NCBI GenBank assembly: GCA_964431835.1
Contig: CAYSKO010000003.1
Coordinates: 53,132-117,131 of the forward strand
DNA from: an uncultured Planctomycetia bacterium
Lineage (GTDB): Bacteria > Omnitrophota > Gorgyraeia > 2-02-FULL-51-18
Length of the DNA stretch: 64,000 bases
Direction: 5' to 3'
The position numbers and the translations under genes were made by a program. This document shows positions 15,866-57,610 of the stretch, piece after piece; the stretch's first letter is position 1; the number at the start of each line of letters is the position of its first letter. The notes below the pieces were generated by a model. That model saw only the letters and a program-made list of their open reading frames with translations. It was not told the DNA's origin and made no database searches.

Positions 15866-15921
15866 GTTATACGCCTAGAGCGATTAAAATATGGTTAAAA
15901 TGAAATTAGAACTTTTTAATC
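15866..15921 (-). promoter_or_regulatory. copy A of the 55-bp AT-rich stress element (promoter/operator candidate for the DUF2383 gene)
   Basis: TTATACGCCTAGAGCGATTAAAATATGGTTAAAATGAAATTAGAACTTTTTAATC on the plus strand. The egtD stop codon (TGA 15920-22) is embedded in the TTTTTAATC arm. On the coding strand TATAAC lies 33 nt before the ATG. Confidence 0.5.
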
Positions 15922-16894
15922 AAGCGTTCGTGAGGAAAAATAAGCCGAAATACTCGTTTTCGTCGGTCCACACTTCCTCGAGCTCAAGATCCGCGGCCAG
16001 CGCCAGACGCCGGAATCCGTCCACGTCGTATTTGTGACAGCGTTCCGTCAATATCGATTCCCCTTGTCCGAACCGGAACGTCTCCCCGTCGATCGTCGCG
16101 ATCTGCTCGCACGCACTCACCAGCCGCATCTCCACACGGCCTTCGCCCTCCGCGTAGACGGCCTCGTGCCGGAAATTATCCACGCGAATATCGCCGCCCA
16201 GCTCCCGGTTGATGCGAACGAGCAAATTCAGATTGAATGCGGACGTCAGCCCCTCTCGGTCGTCGTAAGCGCGCTCTAGAATCTCCCGCGGTTTCTTTAA
16301 GTCCACTCCGATGAGCAGGCCACCATTTGGATGGCAAAGCCTCGATATTTTCTCGAGAAGCTCGCGGGCTTGGGACGGTTCGAAGTTGCCGATCGTGGAA
16401 CCGGGGAAATAAACGATTTTGCGCGTCACGTAGCCGCCACACGGCGGTAGCGCGTAGAAATCGACAAAGTCGGCGAACACCGGGCAGACGTCGAGTCCCG
16501 GATAGGCGGTCGCAAAGCGCCGGGCCGTCTCGACCAGCGCGCCGCGGGCGATGTCGATCGGGACATAGCCGGCGGGAGACTGCATGCGGTCGAGAAGAAG
16601 CCGGGTCTTTCTCCCGGAACCGCTGCCGTATTCCACGAGCAGGCAGTCGGTCCCCATTCGCCCAACGATGTCGTCGATGTTCTCGCGCATGATCTTCGTC
16701 TCCACGCGACCGACGTAATAATCGGGGGTGTCGACGATGCGCTCGAAGAGCCACGACCCGCGTTCGTCGTAGAAATACTTGCACGGCAACTCTTTCTTCG
16801 GAAGGCGCAGACCGGCTAGAACTTCCTCCTTGAACGTCGTCTCCGGAGGAGAGAAATCGTATAACCGGGGCCCTTCGGTCTCCACGCGCATCAT
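15920..16894 (-). CDS. egtD: L-histidine N-alpha-methyltransferase (ergothioneine biosynthesis)
   Basis: YFYDERGSWLFERI, LLVEYGSGSGRKT, and the DUF2260 methyltransferase fold throughout. Confidence 0.85.
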   Translation of the reverse strand: MMRVETEGPRLYDFSPPETTFKEEVLAGLRLPKKELPCKYFYDERGSWLFERIVDTPDYYVGRVETKIMRENIDDIVGRMGTDCLLVEYGSGSGRKTRLLLDRMQSPAGYVPIDIARGALVETARRFATAYPGLDVCPVFADFVDFYALPPCGGYVTRKIVYFPGSTIGNFEPSQARELLEKISRLCHPNGGLLIGVDLKKPREILERAYDDREGLTSAFNLNLLVRINRELGGDIRVDNFRHEAVYAEGEGRVEMRLVSACEQIATIDGETFRFGQGESILTERCHKYDVDGFRRLALAADLELEEVWTDENEYFGLFFLTNA

Positions 16895-18165
16895 GAGCGG
16901 GCGTCCCGGGCGAGCCGGATGCCGGAAAACTGCCAGCGGTCCGACGGGCGGAAAAAATTACGGTACGAGACACGGATGTGGGAGCGCGGCGTCGCGCACG
17001 AGCCTCCGCGGAGAACCATGCGGTTCGACATGAATTTGCCGTTGTACTCCCCGAGCGCTCCGTCGGCTGGACGGAACCCCGGATAGGGAGCGTACGCGCT
17101 CGAGGTCCATTCCCAGACATCGCCGAAAAGCTGGGCGATCCCGCGGCCCCCGGGGGCGCGACGCGGACGGAGCCGCCCGGTTTCGAGAAAATTTCCTACG
17201 ATGCGTTCGGGACCCGCGGCGTATTCCCACTCAAATTCGGTCGGCAGGCGTGCGCCGCTCCACCGCGCGTAGGCGTCGGCTTCGTAAAAACTCACGTGGC
17301 AAACCGGCTCTTCGGGATCTACCGGACGCATCCCCTCCAAAGTGAAATGCCGCCAATCGCGCCCGTGACGCTCCCAGTACAGCGGGGCTTCCCATGTGTG
17401 GGTGCGCACTTCATCCCATCCGTCGGAAAGCCAGAGCTCCGGCCTGCGGTACCCGCCATCTTCGATGAACGCGGCGAATTCGCCGCACGTGGTCGGGCGC
17501 TCGGCCAAAAGAAATTCTTCGCAGCGGACACGGTGCCGCGGGGTCTCGTTATCGTAGGAAAAACCGCTCCCCGAGTGCCCCGCCTCCGTCTCCGCGGCGG
17601 GATACGCGCGCCAGCGCGCAGGCGTCCCGGCGGCCAGCTCCGCTTCTTCTTCGTCCGGCAAACGGTAGGCCGGCCGAAGCGGGTTCGACCCGAAGAGATG
17701 TTTCACGTCCGTCAGAAGGAGTTCCTGGTGCTGTTCCTCGTGATGGAGGCCCGTTTCGACGAGCCGTTCGAGCTCGGAGTCCGCGCCCGTGCCGATGAGC
17801 GCTTCCATTCGCGCGTCGACTGCGGCGCGGTAGCGCATCACTTCCGCGAGCGGCGGACGCGAAAGCAAACCGCGTTCTGCGCGCGGCTGACGTGGGCCGA
17901 GCGTTTCGTAGTACGAATTGAACAGATAGGCGTATTTGGGGTGGAACGGGCGGTGGCCTGAAACGAAAGGAGCGAGAACGAGAGTCTCAAAAAACCACGC
18001 CGTGTGTCCCAGATGCCATTTGACGGGACTCGCGTCGGGCATGGACTGGAGCGCGCAATCCTCGGCGCTCAGCGCCGAGGCGAGGGCCTCCGTGCGGGAG
18101 CGGACCTCCTTATAACGCGACACCAGGAGAAAATCGCAGGTGCGGGCATGCACGGTCGCGGCCAT
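16891..18165 (-). CDS. egtB: ergothioneine biosynthesis sulfoxide synthase EgtB (DinB_2 + FGE-sulfatase domains)
   Basis: DinB_2 N-domain HLGHTAWFFETLVL…HHEEQHQELLLTDV, then an FGE-type C-domain. Stop overlaps the egtD start (ATGA). Confidence 0.85.
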   Translation of the reverse strand: MAATVHARTCDFLLVSRYKEVRSRTEALASALSAEDCALQSMPDASPVKWHLGHTAWFFETLVLAPFVSGHRPFHPKYAYLFNSYYETLGPRQPRAERGLLSRPPLAEVMRYRAAVDARMEALIGTGADSELERLVETGLHHEEQHQELLLTDVKHLFGSNPLRPAYRLPDEEEAELAAGTPARWRAYPAAETEAGHSGSGFSYDNETPRHRVRCEEFLLAERPTTCGEFAAFIEDGGYRRPELWLSDGWDEVRTHTWEAPLYWERHGRDWRHFTLEGMRPVDPEEPVCHVSFYEADAYARWSGARLPTEFEWEYAAGPERIVGNFLETGRLRPRRAPGGRGIAQLFGDVWEWTSSAYAPYPGFRPADGALGEYNGKFMSNRMVLRGGSCATPRSHIRVSYRNFFRPSDRWQFSGIRLARDARS

Positions 18166-18192
18166 AGGGACCCCCAGATTGATATCCTTCTC

Positions 18193-18247
18193 TTATACGC
18201 GCCTGGCGATTAAAAGGGGGTTAGATTTGGATTAAAAGTTTTTAATC
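18193..18247 (-). promoter_or_regulatory. copy B of the 55-bp AT-rich stress element (upstream of egtB)
   Basis: TTATACGCGCCTGGCGATTAAAAGGGGGTTAGATTTGGATTAAAAGTTTTTAATC. The stop (TAA 18242-44) of the upstream 825-aa gene is embedded in the TTTTTAATC arm. TATAAG lies 26 nt before the egtB ATG on the coding strand. Confidence 0.5.
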
Positions 18248-20719
18248 GCGGGTTCTTTCGCGGGATTCTTTTTCGATCTCCCGCCGGCCGGTCTTGGGAT
18301 CCGTCCGCATCACCCACGCACGGGACGAAAGCGGAAGGCCGTCCAAGCTCGGTGCGTCCTCCTCGGGGACGTGGATGTCGACGACGAGGGGCCAGTGGTC
18401 TGACGATTGCCGGTCGAGCGAAGTCGTGGGGACGCGGATGCCGGTCACTTGGATGCGCGGGCCGACGAACACGTGGTCGATCCGCCCGAGCCCCATCCAC
18501 GTGTTCTGCGGACGGTGCGCGTTGAGATGAAGCTGCGTGTCGCGCAAAACCGAACCGATCTTGCGGTAAGCCGGAGACGTCGGCAGCGCATTAAAATCGC
18601 CGCACAGGACGACCGGCCCCGAACACGCCGAATTCGCGAGCCAGTCGGCGCCGGAGAGCGCCTCCGCCTGGAGCAAACGCTCGGCGGGCCAAATGCTCAG
18701 GTGGGAATTGATAAGCTGTAGCTTGGTGAACCCGATGTCGATCGCGACCCACATAGCCCCGCGCGGCTCGAGATCTTTGCGCAGCTGCGGAAGCGGCGCG
18801 ACTTTCACGAGGTACATCGGGAAACGCGAGAGGATCGCGTTTCCGTACTGGCCGTCCTCGATGAGGAAGGTCGGGTGGAAATGAAACGTCATGTCGAGCC
18901 GCCGGGCGATCTGTTCGACTTGGTCCACGCAGCCCGAGCGCGAGCGGCCGACGTCGAGCTCTTGTAGCGTGACGACGTCGGCGTCGTGCCGCGCGATCAC
19001 GCGCGCGATACGTTCGGGCGAGCATTTTCCGTCGAGGCCCACGCAGCCGTGCACGTTGTATGTCATGATCCGGACGGTACGGAGCGACGCAGGGCGGAAC
19101 GCGCGTTTCACGCGGCCGTCCGAGCGGCCGAGCACGCGGAGCGCGGCTTCCCGGATATGCGCGGGCCGGAGATAGGGCTTTTCGAGCGGCGGGAGTGGCG
19201 CGTCCGACGTCAAAAGCGCGAAGCCGTGCGTCTCCTGCGGTCCCGCCCCGGCGTGGCTGCCGTGTTCGAGCGGGAAACTGGACGACTGCGCTCCGTGACG
19301 CCAGCCGAGAATGATGAAGTCGCCTGCGTCGGGGTGATGAGCGAGAGCGGCGACGTCCCGCGCGGCTTCTTCGAGAAAAGGATGATCTGGTCCGAGGAGC
19401 CGCGCGGCATCGGCGGGCAAAGAAAAACGGCCGTCTTCGGTCCATACGAGCGCTTCTTCAGGCCGGCTCGGCAGCATCACCGCGGGCACGCCCAGACGAG
19501 CGGGCATCTCGGACGCGAAGCGTTCTTTGTCGCACGCGTCCATCTCGCCCGGCACGTAGACGTGCGCGATCGGACCCATCGCGGTCACGATCACGCGCGA
19601 AGGGGTCAGGCTTTCGTCGGCCGGCTCTTCCCCCGGGCGCGAGTCGAGCGCGTGCGACTCGAGAAGACCGGCCCCGGATTCCCAATGCGAAAGAGGCCCC
19701 GGATCGTCCGAATGGACGCGCTTGCCGAAAAATTCCGCGACCGCGGCCTCGAGCGAGCGACCGTTCTTCTGCGTATAGGAGTGGGCGTTTTCCTGGCCGT
19801 GATCGGAATAAACCCAAACGTCGTAATGGCGCTGCGCCGAGCGGTGGGCCGATCTCCACACGCGCCCGATCGCGTCGTCGATGCCGCGGAGCGACCAATG
19901 CGCGAACTTGGAAGTGGGCCCGCGCCGGTGCGACTGCTCGTCGTACCCGAGAAGATTCAAATGAATGACCGGCAGGCCGCGCGCGACGTCGATCGTCGCG
20001 CCTGCGATCACGAGCTCCCGCAGAAGCACGCAGACCGCCACGCGTGTCGGGACGAATTCGAGCTCCTTCCAAAAACGTTTACCCGCGAACGTTCCGCGTA
20101 CGCAGTCGATCGTGGCAAGGACGAACTCGATCACCATGAGAATCGCGGTGCGCAAGAGAATGTCGAAATAAAGCACCATCAGAATCGGAAGGACGAGCGG
20201 ATTCGGAGCGCAGAAAAGGGCCTTCCAGCCGATTTTCGCCGCGCAGAAGCGCGCGTCTTTCGCTCCCCCGGTGAACACGTTCGAATAGGAGCTGCCTTCG
20301 GCGAGGAGACCGGGAGCAACCTTCTCGAGTCGCCGTTCGACTTCGCTTGCCGACGCGGTGTCGTACATTTTGAATATGCGGCCGCTTTTTCGGTCGAGGT
20401 AGCTGAAGGCGGGCACGCAACTTTTGACGCCGTAGAAGATTTCCCCCTGGACGGAGGGCGTGTTGGAAGGCATGCCGGAATAATGGGAGTGGAGCGTGTA
20501 GTTTTCGTGATCGACGAGCCGCTTGAGGAACGGCATATCGTGCGCAGAGAGAGCGCGCGTCAGCTGCGGGCGGGAAAGACCGTCGATCTGGACCATGACG
20601 AGGCCCGGCGTCGTCGGCGAAGCGTTCGCGCGGGAAAGACCGAGAAGACGAATGGCCCACTCGCTCCGGCTGAAGACGCGACGGAACACCCGGACGACCC
20701 GGCTCAGTTTAAATACCAT
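18242..20719 (-). CDS. membrane-associated bifunctional phosphoesterase: N-terminal alkaline-phosphatase-superfamily (type I phosphodiesterase/nucleotide pyrophosphatase-like) domain, TM segments, C-terminal endonuclease/exonuclease/phosphatase (EEP) domain
   Basis: N-terminal MVQIDGLSRPQLT…HYSGMPSNTPSVQ (AP-superfamily metal site). Hydrophobic helices around residues 170-230. C-terminal EEP signature RIMTYNVHGCVGLDGK…VVTLQELD…GDFNALPTSPAY…SDHWPLVVDI. Confidence 0.6.
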   Translation of the reverse strand: MVFKLSRVVRVFRRVFSRSEWAIRLLGLSRANASPTTPGLVMVQIDGLSRPQLTRALSAHDMPFLKRLVDHENYTLHSHYSGMPSNTPSVQGEIFYGVKSCVPAFSYLDRKSGRIFKMYDTASASEVERRLEKVAPGLLAEGSSYSNVFTGGAKDARFCAAKIGWKALFCAPNPLVLPILMVLYFDILLRTAILMVIEFVLATIDCVRGTFAGKRFWKELEFVPTRVAVCVLLRELVIAGATIDVARGLPVIHLNLLGYDEQSHRRGPTSKFAHWSLRGIDDAIGRVWRSAHRSAQRHYDVWVYSDHGQENAHSYTQKNGRSLEAAVAEFFGKRVHSDDPGPLSHWESGAGLLESHALDSRPGEEPADESLTPSRVIVTAMGPIAHVYVPGEMDACDKERFASEMPARLGVPAVMLPSRPEEALVWTEDGRFSLPADAARLLGPDHPFLEEAARDVAALAHHPDAGDFIILGWRHGAQSSSFPLEHGSHAGAGPQETHGFALLTSDAPLPPLEKPYLRPAHIREAALRVLGRSDGRVKRAFRPASLRTVRIMTYNVHGCVGLDGKCSPERIARVIARHDADVVTLQELDVGRSRSGCVDQVEQIARRLDMTFHFHPTFLIEDGQYGNAILSRFPMYLVKVAPLPQLRKDLEPRGAMWVAIDIGFTKLQLINSHLSIWPAERLLQAEALSGADWLANSACSGPVVLCGDFNALPTSPAYRKIGSVLRDTQLHLNAHRPQNTWMGLGRIDHVFVGPRIQVTGIRVPTTSLDRQSSDHWPLVVDIHVPEEDAPSLDGLPLSSRAWVMRTDPKTGRREIEKESRERTRD

Positions 20720-20846
20720 CGGGACCGAACGGACCGCGGCGCCAGGACCACGCGATGGCCGCGCCGAGATAACCTATGACCGCGAACGCATACAGGCAGA
20801 GAAAAAGACTGAATACTTCTTCGGGGCGGAGCGGATAGAGGTTCAT
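20709..20846 (-). CDS. unannotated small membrane ORF (45 aa) overlapping the start of the phosphoesterase gene by 11 nt
   Basis: Minus-strand ATG at 20846, GAGGAGG 12 nt upstream. MNLYPLRPEEVFSLFLCLYAFAVIGYLGAAIAWSWRRGPFGPDGI. Below the track cutoff. Confidence 0.3.
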   Translation of the reverse strand: MNLYPLRPEEVFSLFLCLYAFAVIGYLGAAIAWSWRRGPFGPDGI

Positions 20847-20956
20847 GGGGTTGGCGGTCCTCCTCAGAACCGGTCGGGAATGACTCGGGCTTAACGTTTT
20901 TTTAAAGCGGGGCGAAACCCTCCGTAGACCCCCGGATCGATCCTGCCCAGAGAACG

Positions 20957-21010
20957 TTATAGCGCGGACGTAATTAAAGAGGCCTTAAATTAAGATTAGA
21001 AGTTTTTAAC
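20957..21010 (-). promoter_or_regulatory. copy C of the 55-bp AT-rich stress element (upstream of small ORF + phosphoesterase)
   Basis: TTATAGCGCGGACGTAATTAAAGAGGCCTTAAATTAAGATTAGAAGTTTTTAAC. TATAAC lies ~108 nt before the small-ORF ATG on the coding strand. Confidence 0.4.
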
Positions 21011-21149
21011 CCTGTCGGTGACTCCGATTGGAGCCACGAGCGAGCACTTCCACGCTCTAGGGAAATTCGCGTTCATCGCGATCTTGTTGCGGGAGTAAAG
21101 CCGCGCGTCGCGGCACTTTTGGAAAGCGAGGCGGGGGATTTGGGCGCCC

Positions 21150-22430
21150 TCAGACGACGACCGCCTCCGTGCTTTCTTTTTTTGCGAGCGATTCCTTCGT
21201 CGCCTTCCCGATGTTCTTGAAGATTTTCCATTCGGCTTTCAGGACGCGCATTGTCGTGGCCCACTTCCCGCCTGCGGCGTCGGTGCGGCGTCGGGACCGG
21301 CGCGTGAGACGCGAATACACTTCGAGCGCCTTGGCTGCGGAGCGCGGCATGGAATATTCGGCGGCGGTCTTAAGACACGCCTCCCGGAGGGCTGAGCGGG
21401 CCTCGGGCGAAAGATCCGCCGCCCATTCGAGCGCGCCCGCGAAGGTCTCTTCGTCTTCCGCCGGAAGGAGCCGGCCGCTCGTCAGGTCCACGACGATGTC
21501 ACGGACGCCGCAGGCGTCGACCGCGACGACAGGGACACCCGCCGAGAACGCTTCCGCGAGGACTAGGCCCTGCGTCTCGCTCTGCGACGCGAACGCGAAC
21601 ACGTCGATCGCGTGGTAGGCGTCGACGAGCGCCTGGTCCTTCACGATGCCGATGGCATGCACTCGGTCCGAAACCCCCGCTTCATCGAAAATCGCGTGGA
21701 CCGCGTCTTCCGAAGGCCCTTTGCCCGCCAGAAGGAAATGCGCTTCGGTGCGTTTTTTTAGGAACCGGGCGACGGCGCGCGCGGTGAACTCGAGATTTTT
21801 TTCCGGGGCGAGGCGTCCGATGTGCCCCACGACGAACGCGCCGGAGGGGATCCCCGCGCTCCGGCGGCACTCTTCGCGGTTGCCCGAAGCGAAGCGCTCG
21901 ACGTCGATCCCCGTCGGAACCACGTCGATGGGGCTTTCCACGCCGCGTTCGCGCAGCATGTGCATGACGGACGCGCTGGGCGCGATCACGTGGTCGGCGA
22001 GATTGGAATAGCCGACCGCCAGCTCCACCACGAAGCGCGTCAGACGCTCGGATTCGCCATGGGTGACGTAATGCATGTTCTGCTCGAAGAGGGTGTGGTG
22101 TGTGAAAACGAGCGGCACTTTGTGTTTATGGGCCACGCGCAGCGCGGTGGCGCCCATGAGAAAAGGGTGGTGCGAATGAACCACTTCCGGACGAAACTCT
22201 CCGAGCGCCTCGGCCAGCACGACCGGCACCGGAAATTTGAGCGAAAAGGGCGTACCGTGGACGTTCTTCATCGAAGGCACGCGGATGACTCCGCGCTCTT
22301 CGCCGTCCGTGCCCTCGAAAGCGGGCGCGACCACGACGACGTTGTGGCCGTAACGGCGGTATTCCTCGGTGAAAGCCTCGATGGATTTTTCCAAGCCGCC
22401 CACGATCGGCTTGTAGGTATTGGTCATCAT
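21150..22430 (-). CDS. GT4-family glycosyltransferase
   Basis: ORF 21150..22664 trimmed to ATG 22430 (MMTNTYKPIVGGLEKS, typical GT4 N-terminus). Catalytic C-domain E-x7-E region …SQSETQGLVLAEAFSAGVPVVA. Confidence 0.75.
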   Translation of the reverse strand: MMTNTYKPIVGGLEKSIEAFTEEYRRYGHNVVVVAPAFEGTDGEERGVIRVPSMKNVHGTPFSLKFPVPVVLAEALGEFRPEVVHSHHPFLMGATALRVAHKHKVPLVFTHHTLFEQNMHYVTHGESERLTRFVVELAVGYSNLADHVIAPSASVMHMLRERGVESPIDVVPTGIDVERFASGNREECRRSAGIPSGAFVVGHIGRLAPEKNLEFTARAVARFLKKRTEAHFLLAGKGPSEDAVHAIFDEAGVSDRVHAIGIVKDQALVDAYHAIDVFAFASQSETQGLVLAEAFSAGVPVVAVDACGVRDIVVDLTSGRLLPAEDEETFAGALEWAADLSPEARSALREACLKTAAEYSMPRSAAKALEVYSRLTRRSRRRTDAAGGKWATTMRVLKAEWKIFKNIGKATKESLAKKESTEAVVV

Positions 22431-22438
22431 GAGAATGT

Positions 22439-24718
22439 TCACCGAGCGCCTCCGAGCGGGTTGACTAATACGGAACCCGCGGACGTGCGGGCCGTCGCGG
22501 GAACGAAACCGGGCAGGCGAATCGCGATCTCCGGCCCTTCGCCACGCCACTGTCCGCTCCAAGTGACCCGCATGCCTCCGTTTTCTGGACGGAGTTCGAC
22601 CGAAACGGGGCCCCACGTGGTCGCCGTTTCTCCGAAGGACATCGGCTCGCCCGACGCGGTCCACTCCGGGGGAATCCCCGCGGCGATCACGAGCCTGTTT
22701 TCGGCCTCTTCTTCACGAACGAACATGTTACGGAGCATGAGAACCCATTCGGCTGCGGCCCAAACGTGCTGGCCATCCCCCATGCAGCCGCCTTTCGTCT
22801 GCGGGTGGACGGCCTCGGGCCACTGCCCCGTGGGCGACGCCAGGCGAGCGATGGCCTGCGTGAGATCGAAATGACGCGGGTCGCCCGCCCGCAGGAGGAT
22901 CTGCGCCACGTGGAGGGTGAGGTAGGGATTGATTCCGGAATGGCTGATCTGCTGGAAGAAGCCGCCTTCCACGAAGTAATCGCGCATGAGAAAATTCGCC
23001 GTGTCCGTCAGCCGGGGGTCGGCCGGCTTCCAAAGCTGGAGTGGGTAACCGCCCGCGATCGAACCGATCGAACCCGCGTCGAGGCGGCGGTACGGCGACG
23101 CCGGCACCGCCGCAGTGCCGGGAAAAGTCGCCGACGCGACGCTGCGGTCGACGCACGCTGAGAAATCGGCGGATTCGCGCCGGAAGACGGCCGCGTCGCC
23201 GGAGGCGCCGTACCGGTCGCAAAGCCACGCCGCCGCCTCGAGTCCCGCGATCGACCAGAAATCGTCCCAATAGTAAAAATCGTTGGGCCCCAAATGTTCC
23301 GCGCTGAATCCCGCGGGCATGAGTCCGGCGTGGCCTTTGCCGGAATCGGAGGCCAGACGTTTACGGACGATCCATTTGCCGGCTCTCAAGATCGAGTTCT
23401 TCCAAGCGGCCTTCGGGTCTTTTCCGGTCAGCTCGCACCAGCGGCGCATGGTCCAGAGCGCCTCTCCATTCGAATCCCACTCCCCTTCCTGCGAGAGGAA
23501 ATAACCGAACGGCGTTTGCCGGGAGGGAAAGCGATCGATCACCCGTTCCGCGCGGTGCGCGAGCCCCACGCAGATGAGCGCGTGGAGGATAAACGCGGCG
23601 TCCCGGAACCAGAAACGTTTGTAGGTGTAGGGACCGGGGTAAACATCGCCGGGCGAATGGAGAACGAGCGTGCGGATCGCCGCCTCGTAGAGAAAACGGA
23701 AATGCGCGTCCGGCACCACCAGCCGCGAGTGGCCCCGCAGGCTTTCCTCCCATTCCATCGGTTCGGGATCTTTCGGCGCGTGCTTGAGCGCCGACCGGAG
23801 CGCCGATTTCTTCGGGAGAGACGTGGAGGCGACGATCGTCCGCCGCTTGCCCGGTTCCAGACGGTAGAGCGCCGCGGCCGTCGCCATGCCGACGTCGCAT
23901 TTGACTTCACCCTCGCTTGCGGTGTCGTCCAGGCGCCGGGAGACGTCGCCGCGTTCGTAGCGCGAGAAGCGCAACCGTTCGGGCGCCTCGCTGAGCCGCA
24001 CGTAATTCTTCCCGTTCACCTTCCAGCCCGGCTGGTCTTCGGTCGAGGCGATGTGATGGATGAAGCTCACTCCTTCGGGGTTGTAGGGCCGAAGCGAAAC
24101 CACGAGCCACGCGGGCACGTCGGAAAGCGCTTCGTAACGCATGCGGCACACGGTCTCCCCGGCGGCGTGACCGACTTCCGCGCGGGCGAAAAGCTCGCGG
24201 CCGGCGGAGGCTGAACGCGTCTCCACGGAAAGCCCGTCTCCCATCGAAAGTTTTTGCTCGGCGTCGCGGACGCGCGCGGGAACCAGCGGAGCAGCTCCGT
24301 CCGGGAAAATCCACGCGTCCACCGACCAGCCGTCGAAAAGGGGCGTCACGAGACCCCGGGGATCGACGATCGGCATTTCGTCGCTGTCCGGAACGCCGAC
24401 GGCGGTCCAATTCCGGTGCGTGAGATTGATGTGGGTGACGTTGAAAGCGCGCGGCACGAAAGCCACGTCGTACGGGTCGAACTGGCGCTCGACCCAAAAC
24501 GGCCAGATCCAGTCCAGATTATGCTGAATCGCCTGGCTGTTCATGAGACCCCGGGCCTGGAGGACGGCGCCGGCGCGCAAAAGCTCGGTCGGGGCCATCA
24601 CTTCGCTGGGCTGGGAAAAACGCTGAAGGCTCGAAAGAAGCGAGATCGGGTCGAGGAAGCCCTGTGCGCGCGCCACGCGGCGCACGACAAACCTCCACGG
24701 AATCCATTTCATCCACAT
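22439..24718 (-). CDS. (alpha/alpha)6-barrel glycoside hydrolase, GH63/GH15-like (possible compatible-solute glycoside hydrolase)
   Basis: 759 aa. Motifs FWFRDAAFILHAL and GYFLSQEGEWDSNGEALWT are typical of six-hairpin glycosidases. The exact family is not resolvable by eye. Confidence 0.5.
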   Translation of the reverse strand: MWMKWIPWRFVVRRVARAQGFLDPISLLSSLQRFSQPSEVMAPTELLRAGAVLQARGLMNSQAIQHNLDWIWPFWVERQFDPYDVAFVPRAFNVTHINLTHRNWTAVGVPDSDEMPIVDPRGLVTPLFDGWSVDAWIFPDGAAPLVPARVRDAEQKLSMGDGLSVETRSASAGRELFARAEVGHAAGETVCRMRYEALSDVPAWLVVSLRPYNPEGVSFIHHIASTEDQPGWKVNGKNYVRLSEAPERLRFSRYERGDVSRRLDDTASEGEVKCDVGMATAAALYRLEPGKRRTIVASTSLPKKSALRSALKHAPKDPEPMEWEESLRGHSRLVVPDAHFRFLYEAAIRTLVLHSPGDVYPGPYTYKRFWFRDAAFILHALICVGLAHRAERVIDRFPSRQTPFGYFLSQEGEWDSNGEALWTMRRWCELTGKDPKAAWKNSILRAGKWIVRKRLASDSGKGHAGLMPAGFSAEHLGPNDFYYWDDFWSIAGLEAAAWLCDRYGASGDAAVFRRESADFSACVDRSVASATFPGTAAVPASPYRRLDAGSIGSIAGGYPLQLWKPADPRLTDTANFLMRDYFVEGGFFQQISHSGINPYLTLHVAQILLRAGDPRHFDLTQAIARLASPTGQWPEAVHPQTKGGCMGDGQHVWAAAEWVLMLRNMFVREEEAENRLVIAAGIPPEWTASGEPMSFGETATTWGPVSVELRPENGGMRVTWSGQWRGEGPEIAIRLPGFVPATARTSAGSVLVNPLGGAR

Positions 24719-24780
24719 ACGTTTGGCGGCGTCCCTTCGGTCGGAGAGAGCTCTATTTTACCACGAAAGACGCGCGGAGG

Positions 24781-26310
24781 CTATTGCGGCGCGGGGACGT
24801 CTAGGGGCTTCAGATTCCGCGTCGCTGGGCCGGTAAGGACCGAGCCGTCGCACCCGAACCGCGACCCGTGGCACGGGCAGTCGAAGCTTTTCTCCGCGCC
24901 GTTCCACTGGACGACGCATCCCAGATGCGTGCACGTGGCGGAGAACACGCTCAGTTCGCCCGTTTCGTCCCGGAAAGCCGCGGCTTTGCCCGGTCCGCGG
25001 CGGAAAATGCCGCCTTCGCCGGGAGCGAGGTCTTCGGGGGAGTCCAGATCCTCCTTTTTCACGCGGTCGGCGGCGAATTGGGTGACGACGTTGAGGTTTT
25101 CCTCGAGGAAGGTCATCGCCGAGCGGACGTTCTTGCGCGTCGGCTCGTAGATATCCGCCCACGCGTTCTTCTTTCCGGCGATCAGGTCCGCCAAAAGCAC
25201 CGCGGCGAGCGTGCCGTACGTCATTCCGTTTCCCGAATAGCCCGTGGCGATGTAGATGCTGTCGTGATAGGGACTGCGGCCGATGAAAGCCAACGAATCG
25301 ACGGGCTCGATCACCTGACCCGACCATCGGTACTCCGCTTCCCCGGCCATCGGGTAACGGGCGCGCGTCCATTCGTCCAATTCGAGGAACGGGCGCTCGT
25401 AATCGTCGTTCTGCCCCGTCTTGTGATCGCGGCCGCCGACGATCAGGTAATCGGAGGTGGGTTCCCGGTGCACGCGCACGTAGTTGTACGGGTCGTCCGT
25501 GTCCCACGCCAGCACATCCGGGACCGAGTCCTTCGGAACGCGGTACGCGGTGGCGTACGTGCGGTACGCGGATTCCTTCAGGAAGAAAAGGACGTTTTTG
25601 ATCGGTGAATGCGTTGCGACGACGACCCTGTTGGCCGTGATCTTGAATCCGCCACGCGTCTGCACGCCGTCCGGCTCGACCCGCTCGACGAACGTGTCGG
25701 TGAAGATCGTCCCCTTTTGCCGGACGATCGCCTTCACGAGACCTTCGAGATAGCGCATCGGATGGAACGCCGCCTGGCGCGGAACGCGCAGCGTCGGACC
25801 CGTTTCGAAGAAAGGGTAAGGCCCGCTCGGGAGAAGCTCCGCCTCGAAACCTGCAGACCGTGCGCCGACCAGCTCTTTCTCGAGAATCTTCGAACCGTCT
25901 TCCGGATGCAGGAAAAGGTAGCCGTCGACCCGGCGAAAATCGCAGTCGATTTTTTCCTCGGCAACGATGGATTCGATCCGGTCGATCGCCTCGCACTGGC
26001 TCGCGGCCACCGCGCGCGCCGTCTCGGCGCCGTGCATCTTTTGGATCTCCGCGTAGCCGAAATCCAGAAACGCCGAAATATGCGCCGTCGTGCGGCCTGT
26101 CTCGCCGGAGCCCACCGCGCCGGAGTCCACCAAGGCCACGCGGTACCCTTCCTTCGAGAGAAGGTACGCGAGCGTCGTTCCGGTGATGCCGGCCCCGACG
26201 ACCACCACGTCGACGTCGATGTCGCGGTCGAGCGTTTCGAATCGAAGCGAAGGCGCGGTGGCGGTCCAAAGCGGTTCGAGATTCCCCGGCGTGCGGTTGG
26301 AGCGGATCAT
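24781..26310 (-). CDS. FAD-dependent oxidoreductase (DAO family) fused to a C-terminal Rieske [2Fe-2S] domain
   Basis: ORF 24781..27102 trimmed to ATG 26310 (MIRSNRTPG…); the upstream part is Arg-rich and overlaps the real Gfo gene. Dinucleotide fold VVVVGAGITGTTLAYLL. Rieske motifs CTHLGC…CPCHGSRF at the C-terminus. Confidence 0.75.
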   Translation of the reverse strand: MIRSNRTPGNLEPLWTATAPSLRFETLDRDIDVDVVVVGAGITGTTLAYLLSKEGYRVALVDSGAVGSGETGRTTAHISAFLDFGYAEIQKMHGAETARAVAASQCEAIDRIESIVAEEKIDCDFRRVDGYLFLHPEDGSKILEKELVGARSAGFEAELLPSGPYPFFETGPTLRVPRQAAFHPMRYLEGLVKAIVRQKGTIFTDTFVERVEPDGVQTRGGFKITANRVVVATHSPIKNVLFFLKESAYRTYATAYRVPKDSVPDVLAWDTDDPYNYVRVHREPTSDYLIVGGRDHKTGQNDDYERPFLELDEWTRARYPMAGEAEYRWSGQVIEPVDSLAFIGRSPYHDSIYIATGYSGNGMTYGTLAAVLLADLIAGKKNAWADIYEPTRKNVRSAMTFLEENLNVVTQFAADRVKKEDLDSPEDLAPGEGGIFRRGPGKAAAFRDETGELSVFSATCTHLGCVVQWNGAEKSFDCPCHGSRFGCDGSVLTGPATRNLKPLDVPAPQ

Positions 26311-26321
26311 GGGACGGCCTC

Positions 26322-27467
26322 TTAAGTGACCGAAGGCGACTGCGCGTGCACGAGCGGCGGTTCGCGCTTCACCGGCGGACGGTCGATTTCCTGCGAAAGG
26401 TTCGGACGCTTGGCCCGGCTGAATTCCTCGAGCCGGACCGTCCGGCCGGTTTCCGCCGAGCGGTAGATCGCGCGGATAATGCGAACGTCGGCGAGGCCTT
26501 CGGCGCCCGAGGGTTCCGGATATTCCCCTTTTCGGATGCAATTCGAAAAATAGAGAAGCTCCGAAGCGAACTGGTCGTGCCGCTTGAACGTTTTTTTCAC
26601 GGTTTTTCCGCCGACGGTGAGCACGTGTCCCAGCTCCAGATCGTAACTGTACGCAGGTTCGACGCGCAACTTGCCCTTCGTACCGCAGATATCGTACGTC
26701 GAGAAGCCGGCGGCGCTGAAGCTGCACGTGAACGTCGCGATGCGGTCGCCGGGAAAGCGCAGGACCACGCCCGCCATCTCGTCGACCTCCCGGAAACGGG
26801 GATCGCCGGACGATTCGGTGAGCGCGGTCACCTCTAAAGGCTCCGCGCGGAAGACGTAACGCGCCGCGTTGATGCAGTAGACGCCGATGTCGTAGACGGT
26901 TCCGCCGCCGAGCGCCGCCTGCAGGCGGATGTCGCCCGGCTTCACGTTCATGGAGAACGCCGAATGGAAGAACCGGACCTCGCCGAGCCGGCCCGACCGG
27001 GCGATCTCGACGGCCTTCAGGTTCGCCTCCTCGAAATGGAGCCGATAGGCAACCATGAGGAAGACGCCGCTTTCGTCCGCGGCCTCGATCATGCTCCTGC
27101 ATTCCTCCTCGGTAACCGCCATCGGCTTCTCGCAGAGGACGTGAACGCCGGCACGCGCGGCACGCACTGCGTAATCGCAGTGCAGATTGTTCGGGAGCGC
27201 GATGTAGACCGCGTCGATCTTTCCGCTCCGCATCGCCTCGTCATACTCGTCGTACGAGTACGTCCGCACGCCGTAGCGGCGGCCGACCTTCTGGTTTTTG
27301 ACCGGATCGTCGGAGATAAGCGCGACGAGCTCCGAATTCTTGGAAGCGTGCTCGAACGCCGGAAGGACCGCCGCTTGGGCAATGTGGCCGATCCCCACCA
27401 CGGCGTAGCGGACGCGCCCGCTTCCTGCCTTGGCGCGGACTTTCGATTTGCGGGCGACGTCGATCAT
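26322..27467 (-). CDS. Gfo/Idh/MocA-family NAD(P)-dependent sugar oxidoreductase
   Basis: Rossmann N-domain VRYAVVGIGHIAQAAVLPAF…, EKP motif, and the Gfo/Idh/MocA C-domain. Confidence 0.8.
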   Translation of the reverse strand: MIDVARKSKVRAKAGSGRVRYAVVGIGHIAQAAVLPAFEHASKNSELVALISDDPVKNQKVGRRYGVRTYSYDEYDEAMRSGKIDAVYIALPNNLHCDYAVRAARAGVHVLCEKPMAVTEEECRSMIEAADESGVFLMVAYRLHFEEANLKAVEIARSGRLGEVRFFHSAFSMNVKPGDIRLQAALGGGTVYDIGVYCINAARYVFRAEPLEVTALTESSGDPRFREVDEMAGVVLRFPGDRIATFTCSFSAAGFSTYDICGTKGKLRVEPAYSYDLELGHVLTVGGKTVKKTFKRHDQFASELLYFSNCIRKGEYPEPSGAEGLADVRIIRAIYRSAETGRTVRLEEFSRAKRPNLSQEIDRPPVKREPPLVHAQSPSVT

Positions 27468-27910
27468 AACGGCCTCCGGACGCCTTTGGGGCGCGCGGGA
27501 CGAGAAACGTCCTCAAGAGTGGCGCCGGCCATGTCCGTGTCGCCGGTGTCCACCGCGAGATCGCCAAGCGAGACGATTCCAACGAGCCGCTGCTCTTTAT
27601 TCAAAACCACGAGGCGTCGGATCTGCTTCTCGCCCATCAGTTTTGCGGCCTCTTGCACGTCCTGGTCCTCGAATCCGTAAACGACGTCCGGGGTCACGAT
27701 CTCCCGTACCTTGGCGACATTGGGGTCCAGGCCTTCGGCGACGGCACGGATCGCGATGTCACGGTCCGTGATCATCCCGATGAGGCGGTGCCCCTCCAGG
27801 ACGGGCAACGGCCCCACGTCGAGCCGCTTCATTTTCTCGGCCGCTTCCTTGATCGTGGCGTCGGATTCGATCACTTCGACCTGTTTGGTCATCACGTCTT
27901 TAAGCAACAT
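27464..27910 (-). CDS. CBS-domain pair protein
   Basis: ORF 27464..27970 trimmed to ATG 27910 (MLLKDVMTKQVEV). Two CBS motifs. Stop overlaps the Gfo start (ATGA). Confidence 0.7.
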   Translation of the reverse strand: MLLKDVMTKQVEVIESDATIKEAAEKMKRLDVGPLPVLEGHRLIGMITDRDIAIRAVAEGLDPNVAKVREIVTPDVVYGFEDQDVQEAAKLMGEKQIRRLVVLNKEQRLVGIVSLGDLAVDTGDTDMAGATLEDVSRPARPKGVRRPL

Positions 27911-27974
27911 GGTTACCGGCCTTTCGTGGGGAGCGGTGCTTTGAGAGGCGGACGGAGTCCGTCCCTTCACTTGG

Positions 27975-28030
27975 TTATAGACCCCAAGTGATTAAAGACC
28001 GATTAAATTCCGATTAAAAAATTTTAATCC
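27975..28030 (-). promoter_or_regulatory. copy D of the 55-bp AT-rich stress element (upstream of the CBS-Gfo-FAD/Rieske-GH-GT4 operon)
   Basis: TTATAGACCCCAAGTGATTAAAGACCGATTAAATTCCGATTAAAAAATTTTAATC, with three GATTAAA direct repeats at ~13-bp spacing. The rlmN stop (TAA 28024-26) is embedded in the TTTTAATC arm. TATAAC lies 63 nt before the CBS ATG. Confidence 0.5.
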
Positions 28031-31295: not shown

Positions 31296-31330
31296 CGAAA
31301 TTATAGCACGGAGGTCGGGATTAATCGAGT
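31296..31330 (-). promoter_or_regulatory. corC operon promoter: extended -10 TGCTATAAT with a partial copy of the stress-element left half (TTATAGC…GGGATTAATCG)
   Basis: Minus-strand reading CTCGATTAATCCCGACCTCCGTGCTATAATTTCGCG… with TATAAT 32 nt before the ATG at 31267. This is the same -10-to-start geometry as element copies A, B and E. Confidence 0.45.
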
Positions 31331-46558: not shown

Positions 46559-46566
46559 CCGGCGGC

Positions 46567-48562: not shown

Positions 48563-48566
48563 GGAA

Positions 48567-48615
48567 CCTATTTTCTATGCGACTTTATATTTTTGAATTT
48601 CGATTAGAATTTGAA
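48567..48615 (-). promoter_or_regulatory. degenerate copy of the AT-rich stress element at the DUF488 stop / nadK leader
   Basis: CTATGCGACTTTATATTTTTGAATTTCGATTAGAATTTGAATTC. The DUF488 stop (TAA 48604-06) is embedded in GATTAGAA, as in the other copies. Confidence 0.3.
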
Positions 48616-49137
48616 TTCGGCCTGCTCAGGCGGGTAGAGAACGCGTTCGCGGTCGAGTTTCGCGAAAGGGGTGAGCTTGTGTTTCTGTGCGGTTTTTCCG
48701 GAGATGACGTGGAACACTTCGACGCCGCGCGCCGTCAGCGCGTCGGACAAGAGTGAACGGTGGCAGCGCCACGGCACGGACTCGGCGCACAGGACGGCGG
48801 CCGGACCTTTATCGGCGTTGAAGGAAAGGAGCGCGTCGAGAGCGCGGCGGAACTGCGGGGTTTCCATGTGATCGGCGTAGCCGCGGAAGGAATCGCTCTT
48901 CCATCCCCCGTTGGGCGAATCGGGCCGGGGACGGCGACGGCCGCCGAGATCGGGGAAATGTAGATAGGCGATGCCAGAGGGAGCGAGCTCTTCCGGAAGG
49001 GTGCGGATGTCGTACTGCGGGTGGCGCTTCGAGCGGGGAATCAGACGAACATCGGCCAGCGCCTTCACGCCGCTCGCTTCGAGGAGCCCGACGAGCTCTC
49101 CGAGCGGGCGCGTGGAATGGCCGACCGTGTAGATCAA
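48604..49137 (-). CDS. DUF488 family protein
   Basis: A probable TTG start at 49137 overlaps the response-regulator stop (TTGA). N-terminus (M)IYTVGHSTRPLGELVGLLEASGVKALADVRLIPRSKRHPQYD matches DUF488. The longer track ORF would overlap the RR gene by 64 nt. Confidence 0.6.
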   Translation of the reverse strand: MIYTVGHSTRPLGELVGLLEASGVKALADVRLIPRSKRHPQYDIRTLPEELAPSGIAYLHFPDLGGRRRPRPDSPNGGWKSDSFRGYADHMETPQFRRALDALLSFNADKGPAAVLCAESVPWRCHRSLLSDALTARGVEVFHVISGKTAQKHKLTPFAKLDRERVLYPPEQAEFKF

Positions 49138-49523
49138 GCCGCGACGGCGGCGGTGATCTTCGAGAGTTCCGACATTTCGATCGGCTTCGAAAGGCATGCG
49201 GTGGGGCGGATATTGAAGCGCTGGAGGAACATTTCGTTCGCAGTCGACGCCGTGAGAACGACCACGGGGACGTTGCGGAGCGCGGGATTGGCCTGGATCT
49301 CGACGATGATCTCGAAGCCGGTGCGCTTCGGGAGATACAGGTCGAGAAGGATGAGGTCGGGACGGTTGTCTTCGGTGAGTCCCTGCACGAGCTCGAACGC
49401 CAATTCGCCGTCCTGGATGACGTCCAGACGGTTGACCATGTCGCTCTCGCTCAGCGTTTCGCGGGTCATTCGCACGTCTTCGTTGTTGTCCTCGATCAGC
49501 AGGATGTTCATTTTACGGGCCAT
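49134..49523 (-). CDS. single-domain response regulator (CheY-like receiver)
   Basis: ORF trimmed to ATG 49523 (MARKMNILLIEDNNEDV). D…DLILLDLYLP phospho-acceptor motif, T and K residues present. No output domain. Confidence 0.75.
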   Translation of the reverse strand: MARKMNILLIEDNNEDVRMTRETLSESDMVNRLDVIQDGELAFELVQGLTEDNRPDLILLDLYLPKRTGFEIIVEIQANPALRNVPVVVLTASTANEMFLQRFNIRPTACLSKPIEMSELSKITAAVAA

Positions 49524-49726
49524 GGCGTGGGACCTTTCTTTGCGGGTTGACCTTGAAAGGACGGATCGTCTGATCGTTAGCAAAAGGCTTTAAGAAGGAG
49601 GAAAACTGCGATTTTCAGATTCGGTACCGGATCGAGCAAAAAAGACGGGAGTCGTGCGGCGGATCGACTTACGGACGATATTATATCATCCGCGGGTCGA
49701 AAAAGAAACCGGATTCTAGGGGGTTT

Positions 49727-52449: not shown

Positions 52450-52476
52450 TCCAAATCTCCTAAATAAAAAAAGCCC

Positions 52477-55158: not shown

Positions 55159-55241
55159 TTGGGATGTCCGTCCGCCTGTTTTCCGCTATATTATACTCAA
55201 GCGGACGCTCATTTTACTACACGGGGAGCCTGTTGCAACAG

Positions 55242-55943: not shown

Positions 55944-55948
55944 AAAAA

Positions 55949-55976
55949 TCGGGGACCGCCCGAAGGCGATCCCCGA
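55949..55976 (-). terminator. Rho-independent terminator between convergent genes
   Basis: TCGGGGACCGCCCGAAGGCGATCCCCGA, a nested stem preceded by A7 on the plus strand (T7 after the hairpin on the minus strand). Confidence 0.75.
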
Positions 55977-56001
55977 AGAATAGCGCGTTGTGGTGCTTGT
56001 C

Positions 56002-56508: not shown

Positions 56509-56577
56509 TTTAAATCTCCTTTGTCTCTCGTATTCTCTAAAAAACGCCGTGGTCCACCTCGGACAACGGCGACCTTC

Positions 56578-57057
56578 TTAATAACGGGCTTCTACGCCCG
56601 TTTCCATGAGTTCCTTGAAACGGTCAAGGTCATGGTCGATCTGCTGGGACGGTTCGTCGCCGAATAGCCGCGCGAACGCGACTCCGACGGCGCCTGCCGG
56701 AGGATTATAGGCGAGCTCCACCTTTACATCCGTGCCGCCGTCCGGGGACTTGTCGAAGCGCACCGAACCGGTGTGCTCGATTTGCGAGCCCTCGATCGAC
56801 TTCCAGCTGATCACTTCGTTCACGCGGTCGGTCACGATCTCGGCGTCCCACTCCACCTTCACACCGAGCGGCGCTTTCGCCACCCAATGCGACCGGGTCT
56901 CGTCGATCATCTCGACGACTTCCAGATGCTCCATGAACCTCGGAAGATTCTCGAAGTCGTGCCAGAAGGCATAAAGCTCTTCGCGCGATTTATTGATCCG
57001 TACAGTCTTTTGAAATTTCATGTCGTACGATTCGATATCGCTCGGTTTTCTCGACAT
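56578..57057 (-). CDS. SRPBCC-family (polyketide cyclase/dehydrase-like) protein
   Basis: 159 aa with the typical helix-grip fold pattern. Confidence 0.65.
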   Translation of the reverse strand: MSRKPSDIESYDMKFQKTVRINKSREELYAFWHDFENLPRFMEHLEVVEMIDETRSHWVAKAPLGVKVEWDAEIVTDRVNEVISWKSIEGSQIEHTGSVRFDKSPDGGTDVKVELAYNPPAGAVGVAFARLFGDEPSQQIDHDLDRFKELMETGVEARY

Positions 57058-57069
57058 TTTCGATCCTCC

Positions 57070-57462
57070 TTACGTGCGCTGCCGCGGGTCCGCGAAAGAG
57101 CGCCGTCCCCGGACAGGTTCGTCGTGCGTCGAACAATCGGTGGCGAGCTTCACGAGAAGAAGCGCGCTGCCGGCCACCGTGAAAAAAAACGAAGTGGGGC
57201 GGTGGTTGAAGTCCGCGAGCCACGGAAGGAGCATGGATGCGACCGCGGCCGCGGATTCCATCGCTCCGTGGACCCCACAAGAAATCCATTTCACGAGGCC
57301 GAAGGAATAGGCGGTAAGAAGCGAAAGCGCCGCGTGAGCGAACGCGATCGAGTACGCGATACGGGCCGCGTCGCCTGGAAAATCGAATATCGTTGGTGCG
57401 GCGGTGAAAGCGAGAACCAGCGTGAAATCGACCACCGCGTGAGATACCGAATTAAGCTTCAA
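57070..57462 (-). CDS. small integral membrane protein (possible SPW-repeat family)
   Basis: TTG start at 57462 with GGAG 6 nt upstream. Four TM helices. LLPWL in the second half. Confidence 0.5.
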   Translation of the reverse strand: MKLNSVSHAVVDFTLVLAFTAAPTIFDFPGDAARIAYSIAFAHAALSLLTAYSFGLVKWISCGVHGAMESAAAVASMLLPWLADFNHRPTSFFFTVAGSALLLVKLATDCSTHDEPVRGRRSFADPRQRT

Positions 57463-57499
57463 AATGATCTCCGTAAAAGAACGGTCTTTGTGAATACAG

Positions 57500-57610
57500 G
57501 ATAGCGCTGGAGGAATTAGAGAACGGTTAGATTGGGATTAAAAGTTTCTAAGCTCTTAAGGGGCTATCGAGAAAACGGATTAGAGCGGGATTAGATTATT
57601 TTAAGGATTT
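57500..57610 (-). promoter_or_regulatory. copy E of the AT-rich stress element plus three extra GGATTAGA(T) direct repeats
   Basis: GATAGCGCTGGAGGAATTAGAGAACGGTTAGATTGGGATTAAAAGTTTCTAAG…ACGGATTAGAGCGGGATTAGATTATTTTAAGGATTTT. The histidine-kinase stop (TAA 57601-03) lies inside the element. TATCCT-like -10 sits 34 nt before the TTG start at 57462. Confidence 0.45.

Follow-up and report, generated by a model that had tools for sequence, protein, structure and literature searches.

A phased four-box promoter/operator module at gene junctions of an uncultured bacterial lineage and its candidate OmpR/PhoB-type regulator

A 64,000-nucleotide stretch of DNA from an uncultured bacterium (contig CAYSKO010000003.1 of assembly GCA_964431835.1, positions 53,132 to 117,131; hereafter the window) carries an AT-rich element in several copies at gene junctions. 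A first-pass annotation, made from the letters without database searches, had described five full copies (A to E) and had proposed them as the operator/promoter of a new stress regulon. The question raised by this locus is what the element does and which protein reads it. Here we report that the element is a real, well-defined promoter/operator module, which is non-random, conserved and placed at a fixed distance from a -10-like hexamer. It is probable that the module is an activator-dependent sigma70-type promoter in which the operator of a response regulator (RR) of the OmpR/PhoB family, from the clade of CopR and CusR, takes the place of the -35 hexamer.

Architecture of the element in the window

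Gap-free alignment of the minus strand of copies A to E shows that they share one register, GATTAAAA-NN-TTYTAATC-N3-WTYTAAYC-N3-YTYTAATY-N11-TATAAC. Each copy has four TYTAAT (ATTARA on the other strand) boxes, one inverted (box0, G[AGC]TTARAA) and, after two nucleotides, three direct (box1, TTYTAATC; box2, WTYTAAYC; box3, YTYTAATY). The box period is exactly 11 bp in all five copies, and box3 is followed after 11 nt by a -10-like hexamer, which is TATAAC in copies A, C and D, TATAAG in copy B and TATCCT in copy E. The terminal base of the half-site is T in box1 and box3, and C, T or G in box2. The whole module measures about 56 bp in a window of 62% GC, and between copies conservation is confined to the boxes and the -10, while the spacers and flanks differ. 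All five copies lie on the minus strand, the one that is transcribed and that codes for all neighbouring genes, and every copy is co-oriented with its downstream gene. Read on the plus strand, the layout resembles GATTAAA-N4-GATTAAA-N4-GATTAAA, that is, tandem half-sites with a 5-bp spacer; in copy D, GATTAAA is found at 27990, 28001 and 28012, and the inverted one at 28023.

The array is far from what chance would give. GATTAAA has 10 matches in the window against 3.6 expected, TYTAA-N6-TYTAA has 11 against 0.05 expected, and the 37-nt four-box pattern has five against 0.00 expected, all on the minus strand, while first-order Markov randomisations of the window gave no four-box match even when 4 mismatches were allowed. 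The claim of the first-pass annotation that the element is not a chance occurrence is therefore upheld, and so are its five copies, the coordinates of which were correct within 1-3 bp. Its half-sites at roughly 11-13 bp are indeed phased repeats, but the spacing is fixed at 11 bp and does not vary over that range, and its inverted repeat as the primary recognition unit has to give way to three direct hexamers and one inverted. The annotation had also placed the stop codon of the upstream gene inside one arm of the element. This holds for copies A, B and D, where the egtD stop (TGA, 15920-15922) abuts box0, and the stops of the EEP gene (TAA, 18242-18244) and of rlmN (TAA, 28024-28026) lie inside box0. 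It does not hold for copy E, for the stop codon of the upstream PAS/GAF histidine kinase gene (57601-57603) falls in a partial second array, E2, directly upstream of E. Two further copies that had been proposed did not survive: the degenerate copy at 48567-48615 has a single good box and is undetected at up to 4 mismatches in 23 positions, and the left-half copy in the corC promoter (31296-31330) has one imperfect box, 14 nt instead of 11 nt from a canonical TATAAT, and fails the relaxed scan. The sequence of the window is present in metagenome assemblies (Logan SRR6448207/09/12, the JGI sample 3300020057 and the contig of a metagenome-assembled genome, MAG), and about 18 kb of DNA flanking it was recovered (retrieved loci carry L-numbers). 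This DNA holds one more copy, the sixth, which has 3 mismatches and follows closely on the end of the window (L121:4199-4235), after an msrA stop codon and before a 91-aa gene and a stand-alone receiver gene.

As the annotation had noted, no TTGACA-like -35 hexamer is present at copies A to E. A sigma70 consensus scan of the 15-29 kb region found no promoter, which is consistent with activator dependence. The intergenic position of the copies, the 8-bp inverted repeat that they contain and the upstream stop codons inside box0 could also suit selfish repeats of the REP/MITE kind, or intrinsic terminators of the upstream genes. However, the differing spacers and flanks, the pointing of each copy to the next gene and the presence of orthologous sites in relatives at 55-60% identity (below) do not fit a selfish repeat, and the annotation's preference for a regulatory element is supported by the same co-orientation, box-only conservation and orthologous positions. 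As for terminators, a scan of the minus strand called no site at any of the five copies. The RNA folds of the copies (z-scores +0.2, -2.8, -2.2, +1.2 and +0.1) consist of A-U stems only and are no better than those of shuffled sequences in three of the five. Both readings are thus very improbable, and we regard them as effectively refuted.

Conservation in relatives and across phyla

The closest relative of the window in the collections is the Candidatus Eisenbacteria MAG GCA_035496715.1 (locus L159), in which the EEP, GT4 and 759-aa proteins are 59.5%, 56% and 63% identical to those of the window and the gene order Gfo-DAO/Rieske-760aa-GT4-...-hemerythrin-EEP-...-138aa-DUF2383-TreZ-GDE-BON-YflT (GDE, glycogen debranching enzyme) is kept. 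From this synteny and from identities of 55-63%, the source of the window is taken to be an Eisenbacteria-like bacterium. The comparison of orthologous intergenic regions that the annotation had called for showed a perfect site A at L159:14534-14570, before the 138aa-DUF2383-TreZ-GDE-BON-YflT operon and behind a different upstream gene, and a perfect site C at L159:7974-8010, upstream of hemerythrin/EEP. In a second relative (L158, 55% identity), site B is found with 2 mismatches at L158:8415-8451, before egtB-egtD and with TATAAT at N11. The -10 is canonical in the three footprints (TAGACT, TATACT and TATAAT) and lies 11 nt from box3. When the intergenic region of site C in the window is aligned with that of the Eisenbacteria MAG, the box array is the sole strongly conserved block. 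Sites A, B and C have been kept over a distance at which protein identity is down to 55-60% and the intergenic DNA around the sites has changed, and it is the TAAT core, beyond mere AT-richness, that is conserved at the orthologous sites. The two closest relatives retain box0 less faithfully (CTTAGAAA, CTTAAAAA and GTTAAAAA). Upstream of DUF2383 homologues from other phyla (L154-L157; at most 49% identical) the motif was absent, so membership of DUF2383 in the regulon is lineage-specific. Stress-gene membership of the regulon is conserved within the window lineage and not across phyla.

The element also occurs well beyond this genome. A scan with the four boxes alone, the -10 being deliberately held out, covered one genome for each species and returned at least 119 loci of the same architecture. 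The matches listed come from Elusimicrobiota, Omnitrophota, Desulfobacterota, Nitrospinota, Nitrospirota, Acidobacteriota, Actinomycetota, Bacillota, Bacteroidota, Planctomycetota, Spirochaetota, Bdellovibrionota, Eisenbacteria and others. The held-out TAnnnT starts 10-11 nt after box3 in 25 of 36 sites of loci with a GC fraction of at least 0.47, in 22 of 30 with 0.40-0.47 and in 30 of 53 below 0.40, that is, at 57-73% of the sites. At other positions TAnnnT mostly occurs 0-2 times, at a few 4-7 times, so that the N10/N11 peak stands well above them, and the -10 is often extended (TGnTAnACT). The -10-like hexamers of copies A to D in the window end in C or G, as against the near-universal T at -7, and a Terriglobales locus has TACAAC at the -10 position (L043 and L097 are listed with the window copies). 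The C/G ending may point to promoters with very little basal activity, or to a sigma preference particular to the lineage. A scan across metagenomes in which the -10 was given as TATAAS, the form of this lineage, yielded 27 loci, mostly AT-rich and unrelated, and did not recover the window lineage.

Among the matches listed, 45 of 119 loci of 8 kb encode an RR with a receiver and a winged-helix domain. In about 30 of them a same-strand RR gene ends about 1.45 kb upstream, giving the order RR, histidine kinase (HK; transmembrane sensor, HAMP, HisKA and HATPase), motif and target gene, and a less specific metagenome scan found the RR(-HK)-motif order in three further independent contigs. Four loci (L023, L027, L030 and L067), Firmicute-like and others, have an RR gene that diverges 41-49 bp from box0. 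In two of these, from Firmicutes/Clostridiales MAGs (L023:7111-7200 and L067:5018-5101), the inverted box0 and an extra box stand 10-11 bp from an RR-facing TATAAT. The array in these two loci seems to serve two divergent promoters, and such use may explain the inverted distal box in the conserved architecture. The recurrent genes downstream of the motif, again among the matches listed, encode small secreted proteins (12+7), receiver-domain proteins (9), HtrA/DegP proteases (8), CzcC/TolC-like efflux proteins in Mucilaginibacter (5), PepSY proteins, ferritins and universal stress proteins.

In eleven Desulfobacterota/Syntrophia loci (L100:2361-2462, and L047, L051, L052, L063, L074, L090, L091, L114, L117 and L119) the motif is followed by a predicted discrete RNA of about 85-95 nt, which begins after the -10 of the motif and ends at a strong terminator. 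The predicted RNA has a short 5' hairpin, an unpaired CU-rich anti-Shine-Dalgarno stretch AACUCUUUCCUCCUC and the terminator AUCCACCG...CGGUGGAUUUUUU, with a fold z-score of -7.5, and resembles in design the CiaR-dependent small RNAs (csRNAs). A search of these loci against Rfam gave no hit at the gathering score, and the E-value mode gave only sub-threshold chance matches. Since a discrete RNA with its own terminator follows the module, the module behaves as a promoter. Together with its register to the -10 and the missing -35, this agrees with the annotation's proposal of a promoter/operator with activator sites overlapping the -35 region.

It could still be argued that in the window lineage the array is bound by something else, namely a transcription factor of another family, a nucleoid-associated protein with a taste for AT tracts, or an alternative sigma factor. 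The poorer keeping of box0 in the two closest relatives would fit this, 11-bp-phased A/T tracts also bend DNA, and about 82 kb of the window organism contain no OmpR-type RR. However, it is the TAAT core, not AT-richness, that persists at orthologous sites, and the motif is identical to the RR-HK-linked one in at least 12 phyla, including Acidobacteriota of the same GC content with a similar -10 (L043 and L097). For a sigma factor in particular, which the annotation had considered, four repeats misfit a bipartite promoter, and the -10 of the relatives is plain sigma70 TAnnnT. Four 11-bp-phased hexamers are instead the signature of a winged-helix RR of the OmpR/PhoB type. We therefore consider another binder quite unlikely.

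The candidate regulator and its mode of action

Six RRs encoded next to the motif in different phyla all have TIGR01387, the CopR/SilR/CzcR heavy-metal RR family, as their best NCBIfam match, with 249-284 bits; two of the six pass its cut-off of 279 bits. Their recognition helix is near-invariant, (T/S)N(V/I)(I/V)DVY(I/V)N(Y/H)LRxK(I/L), as expected of an orthologous group that keeps one DNA specificity, while the neighbouring RRs of Firmicutes and Actinomycetota have a CovR/ArlR-like helix, DVYIRYLR. The nearest solved DNA-binding domains are those of PrrA, DrrD, ArlR, Mycobacterium tuberculosis PhoP and PcoR, with CovR as the 20th-best match. ArlR was set aside as a model of the specificity: its solved recognition helix is near-identical, but it binds a different inverted repeat, ATNGYANNTTAANNTRCNAT.

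The annotation had stated that the element resembles no known regulator box, and here we disagree, for its half-site is the CovR ATTARA, its geometry that of CiaR and the geometry of its box0/box1 palindrome that of the copper box. The ChIP-seq motif of CovR consists of two ATTARA-like hexamers head to tail, 5 bp apart, and CovR is mainly a repressor (PMC8893699). The TYTAAT half-site is the exact reverse complement of this hexamer, with the same 5-bp spacer and head-to-tail order, and both would belong to regulons of an OmpR/PhoB RR that are global and of the stress or virulence type. In contrast, CovR sites are loosely positioned in AT-rich promoters, whereas the array described here is rigid, in register with the -10 and set in DNA of 62% GC. 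With a non-streptococcal source, linked RRs that are CopR/CusR-like and the -10 register, the data do not describe an orthologue of this streptococcal repressor. CiaR promoters have the form TTTAAG-N5-TTTAAG-N10-TATAAT, in which the terminal G is essential (PMC3091779). Like these, the element has direct hexamers with an 11-bp period on the transcribed strand, 10-11 bp before the -10 and in place of the -35, and two themes of the CiaR regulon come back in the cross-phylum set, the HtrA protease and small RNAs that carry anti-Shine-Dalgarno sequences. Unlike these, it ends its half-sites in T or C instead of G, has four boxes with one inverted instead of two, and has a spacer of 11 in the window lineage. 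The RRs that neighbour the motif elsewhere are CopR/CusR-like and not CiaR orthologues. The layout is thus that of a CiaR promoter, and the specificity is not.

The palindromes of CopR, CusR and CzcR are ATTCATnnATGTAAT or AAAATGACAAnnTTGTCATTTT, and regulators of this type typically have a tiny regulon (bioRxiv 10.1101/2023.09.26.559466). The box0/box1 unit of the element, ATTAAAAnnTTTTAAT (ATTAAAA-nn-TTTTAAT), shares with the copper box the outer ATTA/TAAT and the 2-bp centre; the inner bases are AAA/TTT where the copper box has CAT/ATG or GACAA, so the half-site is not the same, and the element adds two further direct repeats toward the -10. An RR-HK pair adjacent to or divergent from its target is another trait shared with CopR and CusR, and the target in Mucilaginibacter is a CzcC/TolC-like efflux gene. 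Metal efflux or detoxification is the target only there, the window copies being upstream of other genes. In the pho box of PhoB and in GlnR and PhoP complexes, tandem winged-helix sites replace the -35 and abut the -10, with up to four protomers on one DNA face. The element likewise has half-sites at an 11-bp period in an array that replaces the -35 and ends 11 nt before the -10, and solved complexes of PhoP and the OmpR family are among the structural matches to a neighbouring RR; it differs from the PhoB, GlnR and PhoP sites in the half-site sequence and in its inverted distal site. The element works like the CovR, CiaR and copper-box systems without being a strict member of those regulons. 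A literature search for RR motifs of the form GATTAAA, TTTAAT or TTTTAAT outside streptococci found no relevant paper.

We favour an activator-dependent promoter with an operator of a CopR/CusR-clade RR because of the rigid register and phasing, the recovery of the held-out -10, the linkage to RR genes of a single clade and the match to known sites, and because of the footprints in relatives, the promoter-terminator pair in Desulfobacterota and the lack of any alternative signal at the copies. If TATAAC is taken as -12/-7, the direct boxes would lie at about -29/-24, -40/-35 and -51/-46 and the inverted box0 at about -60/-55, all on one face of the helix. A sensor kinase would phosphorylate the RR, which would then dimerise and, probably in the form of two dimers, fill the array. 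The promoter-proximal pair of boxes would be occupied where region 4 of sigma normally reads the -35, and RNA polymerase would thus be recruited to the weak -10 (TATAAC/G). Class II activation of the PhoB/CiaR type, as by PhoB, CiaR, PhoP and GlnR, would be the most economical model. That an RR of this clade acts in the window genome itself is deduced from the sites and their partners elsewhere, and activation rather than repression is suggested by the architecture of the sites. The inducing signal could be envelope, metal or oxidative stress, all of which are compatible with the targets found across phyla.

The same array could instead be the operator of a CovR-like repressor, so that the RR, spread over the boxes, shields a weak constitutive promoter until stress relieves the repression. 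The half-site and spacing are those of the mainly repressing CovR, and protein bound from -60 to -24 could block RNA polymerase. A promoter with no -35 and, in the window lineage, a poor -10 would be very weak unaided, however, and the fixed N10/N11 register across phyla is that of the activator-dependent CiaR and PhoB promoters, a register for which repressor sites have no need. We therefore regard a repressor as unlikely.

Several observations weigh against activation by a CopR/CusR-clade RR. No OmpR-type RR gene is present in the 64-kb window and its roughly 18 kb of flanking DNA, which hold stand-alone receivers only, and the linkage between RR and motif was established in other phyla, outside Eisenbacteria. 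Five to seven sites in about 82 kb are unusually dense for a regulator of the CopR/CusR type, and suggest a large regulon. The non-canonical last base of the window -10 has been mentioned, and the half-site comes closest to that of CovR, which acts mainly to repress; this makes activation less certain here. In the cross-phylum set the open reading frames downstream show only a moderate bias in direction (57 against 31 of 88). Finally, some of the AT-rich matches are surely due to chance; most are not, as judged from the -10, target and RR signals.

Genes served by the module and wider meaning

The copies and the genes behind them are collected in Table 1. Pfam largely agrees with the annotation that the downstream genes are stress-related (DUF2383, TreZ, debranching enzyme, YflT, EgtB/EgtD, EEP phosphoesterase, CBS, Gfo, FAD/Rieske, GT4, SRPBCC and NAD kinase). 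Behind copy A, a Shine-Dalgarno sequence (AAGGAGG) precedes the ATG of the DUF2383 gene, 33 nt past the -10, and the unit from DUF2383 to the YflT-like gene is probably co-transcribed; behind copy B, the egtB start is 26 nt past the -10. The gene string behind copy D, from CBS to GT4, may form a single operon.

Table 1. Copies of the module in the window and the gene units behind them
Feature	Coordinates	Strand	Components	Assignment
Copy A	15866..15921	-	box0 15914-15921 (inverted), box1 15905-15910, box2 15895-15899, box3 15883-15888, TATAAC 15866-15871	
Copy B	18192..18247	-	box0 18240-18247, box1 18231-18236, box2 18221-18225, box3 18209-18214, TATAAG 18192-18197	
Copy C	20956..21011	-	box0 21004-21011, box1 20995-21000, box2 20985-20989, box3 20973-20978, TATAAC 20956-20961	
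Copy D (most regular; three GATTAAA on the plus strand)	27974..28029	-	box0 28022-28029, box1 28013-28018, box2 28003-28007, box3 27991-27996, TATAAC 27974-27979	
Copy E	57498..57553	-	box0 57546-57553 (GCTTAGAA), box1 57537-57542, box2 57527-57531, box3 57515-57520, TATCCT 57498-57503	
E2 (partial second array directly upstream of E)	57568..57606	-	CCTTAAAA-TA-ATCTAATC-CCG-CTCTAATC; 4 of 23 specified positions mismatched	
Unit behind A	10168..15832	-	DUF2383 15308-15832, TreZ-like 13172-15055, glycogen debranching enzyme 11109-13175, YflT-like 10168-10692	Pfam
Unit behind B	15920..18165	-	egtB 16891-18165, egtD 15920-16894 (ergothioneine synthesis)	Pfam FGE-sulfatase/DinB_2, Methyltransf_33
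Unit behind C	18242..20846	-	small membrane peptide 20709-20846, 825-aa phosphodiesterase/EEP protein 18242-20719	
Gene string behind D	21150..27970	-	CBS 27464-27970, Gfo/Idh/MocA 26322-27467, FAD-oxidoreductase (DAO) and Rieske, 759-aa protein, GT4 21150-22664	
Genes behind E	56578..57462	-	SPW-like membrane protein (121/130-aa) 57070-57462, SRPBCC/polyketide-cyclase-like 56578-57057	

The putative regulon would then comprise DUF2383-TreZ-debranching enzyme-YflT, EgtB-EgtD, the small peptide with the EEP protein, the CBS-Gfo-...-GT4 string, the SPW/SRPBCC genes and, outside the window, the 91-aa protein with its receiver. We propose that these six units together form a stress-protection regulon under one two-component signal.

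Other genes in and around the window were also recorded. The small peptide behind copy C is hydrophobic and conserved between the window and the Eisenbacteria MAG (L159:~8618-8722), with 33-45 aa and the core LYxFAVIGYxxAAI, and its open reading frame lies immediately upstream of, and overlaps, the start of the 825-aa EEP gene. The kinase gene that ends in E2 (57601-61140, minus strand) encodes a 1179-aa sensor with an N-terminal CheR_N domain, five PAS domains, GAF and HisKA/HATPase, and is preceded by a pirin gene and a gene for an unannotated protein of more than 700 aa (1549 aa in L121). A metal-homeostasis cluster flanks the window start (L123/L124), with a CsoR-like repressor (window 1821-2099), ZnuA/ABC-3, OEP-MFP-RND efflux and Fur; the cluster gave no match to the motif when up to 4 mismatches were allowed.

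Among the genes behind the motif in other phyla, a family of stand-alone receivers (35-59% identical, with DADDY(Y/F)DK(S/A)) is the first gene in six loci (L016, L036, L068, L103, L118 and L120) and occurs in Omnitrophota, Desulfobacterota, Spirochaetota and Planctomycetota. These receivers may serve the same two-component system as connectors or as phosphate sinks. In the window lineage, the receiver-only proteins (window 49134-49583, L121:4742-5176 and L158:3966-4409) are of a different type. The commonest targets in Elusimicrobiota and Omnitrophota are two families of small secreted proteins of about 90-155 aa, one with ...GEIxAIDxxKNEIxVK...GxKVKVTVKDGK... and His/Lys-rich tails (L006, L011, L050, L070, L073, L083, L111, L112, L115 and others), the other with ...GKVxSVxLxDxxKxxKSEIVV...TTTIYD... 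(L035, L042, L072, L079, L089, L107 and L110). A CusF-like identity was considered for these small secreted proteins and dropped, as searches with Pfam and PDB profiles gave nothing significant.

The module brings no new regulatory principle, since the kind of switch, an RR operator/promoter of the OmpR/PhoB type, is known. What is of interest is that one architecture occurs in many phyla alongside one RR clade, and that in an uncultured lineage it is wired to a coherent set of stress-protection genes. Somewhat speculatively, the module may be an ancient operator of a CopR/CusR-related two-component system, whose specificity (four ATTARA boxes, 11-bp phase and N10-11) and recognition helix have stayed near-unchanged in at least 12 phyla, and which seems to be undescribed outside its streptococcal look-alikes. 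From a small envelope or metal module (HtrA, small periplasmic proteins, receiver-only proteins and efflux) it may have expanded in the window lineage into a master switch for general stress and desiccation (trehalose, ergothioneine, DUF2383, BON and YflT), an OmpR-family substitute for sigmaB or EcfG, and may drive a new family of anti-Shine-Dalgarno small RNAs in Desulfobacterota. With a -10 at N10/11, the box pattern can be used to predict members of the regulon in Elusimicrobiota, Omnitrophota, Desulfobacterota, Acidobacteriota and others, among them HtrA, periplasmic proteins that lack annotation, receiver-only proteins and a small RNA family that is likewise unannotated, and it pairs them with a recognisable RR-HK operon. 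For the window lineage, a single 56-bp module would tie trehalose and glycogen remodelling, ergothioneine synthesis and hydrophilin/DUF stress proteins to one two-component signal, and gives a stress regulon of an Eisenbacteria-like candidate phylum without cultured members a definite cis-code that can be tested.

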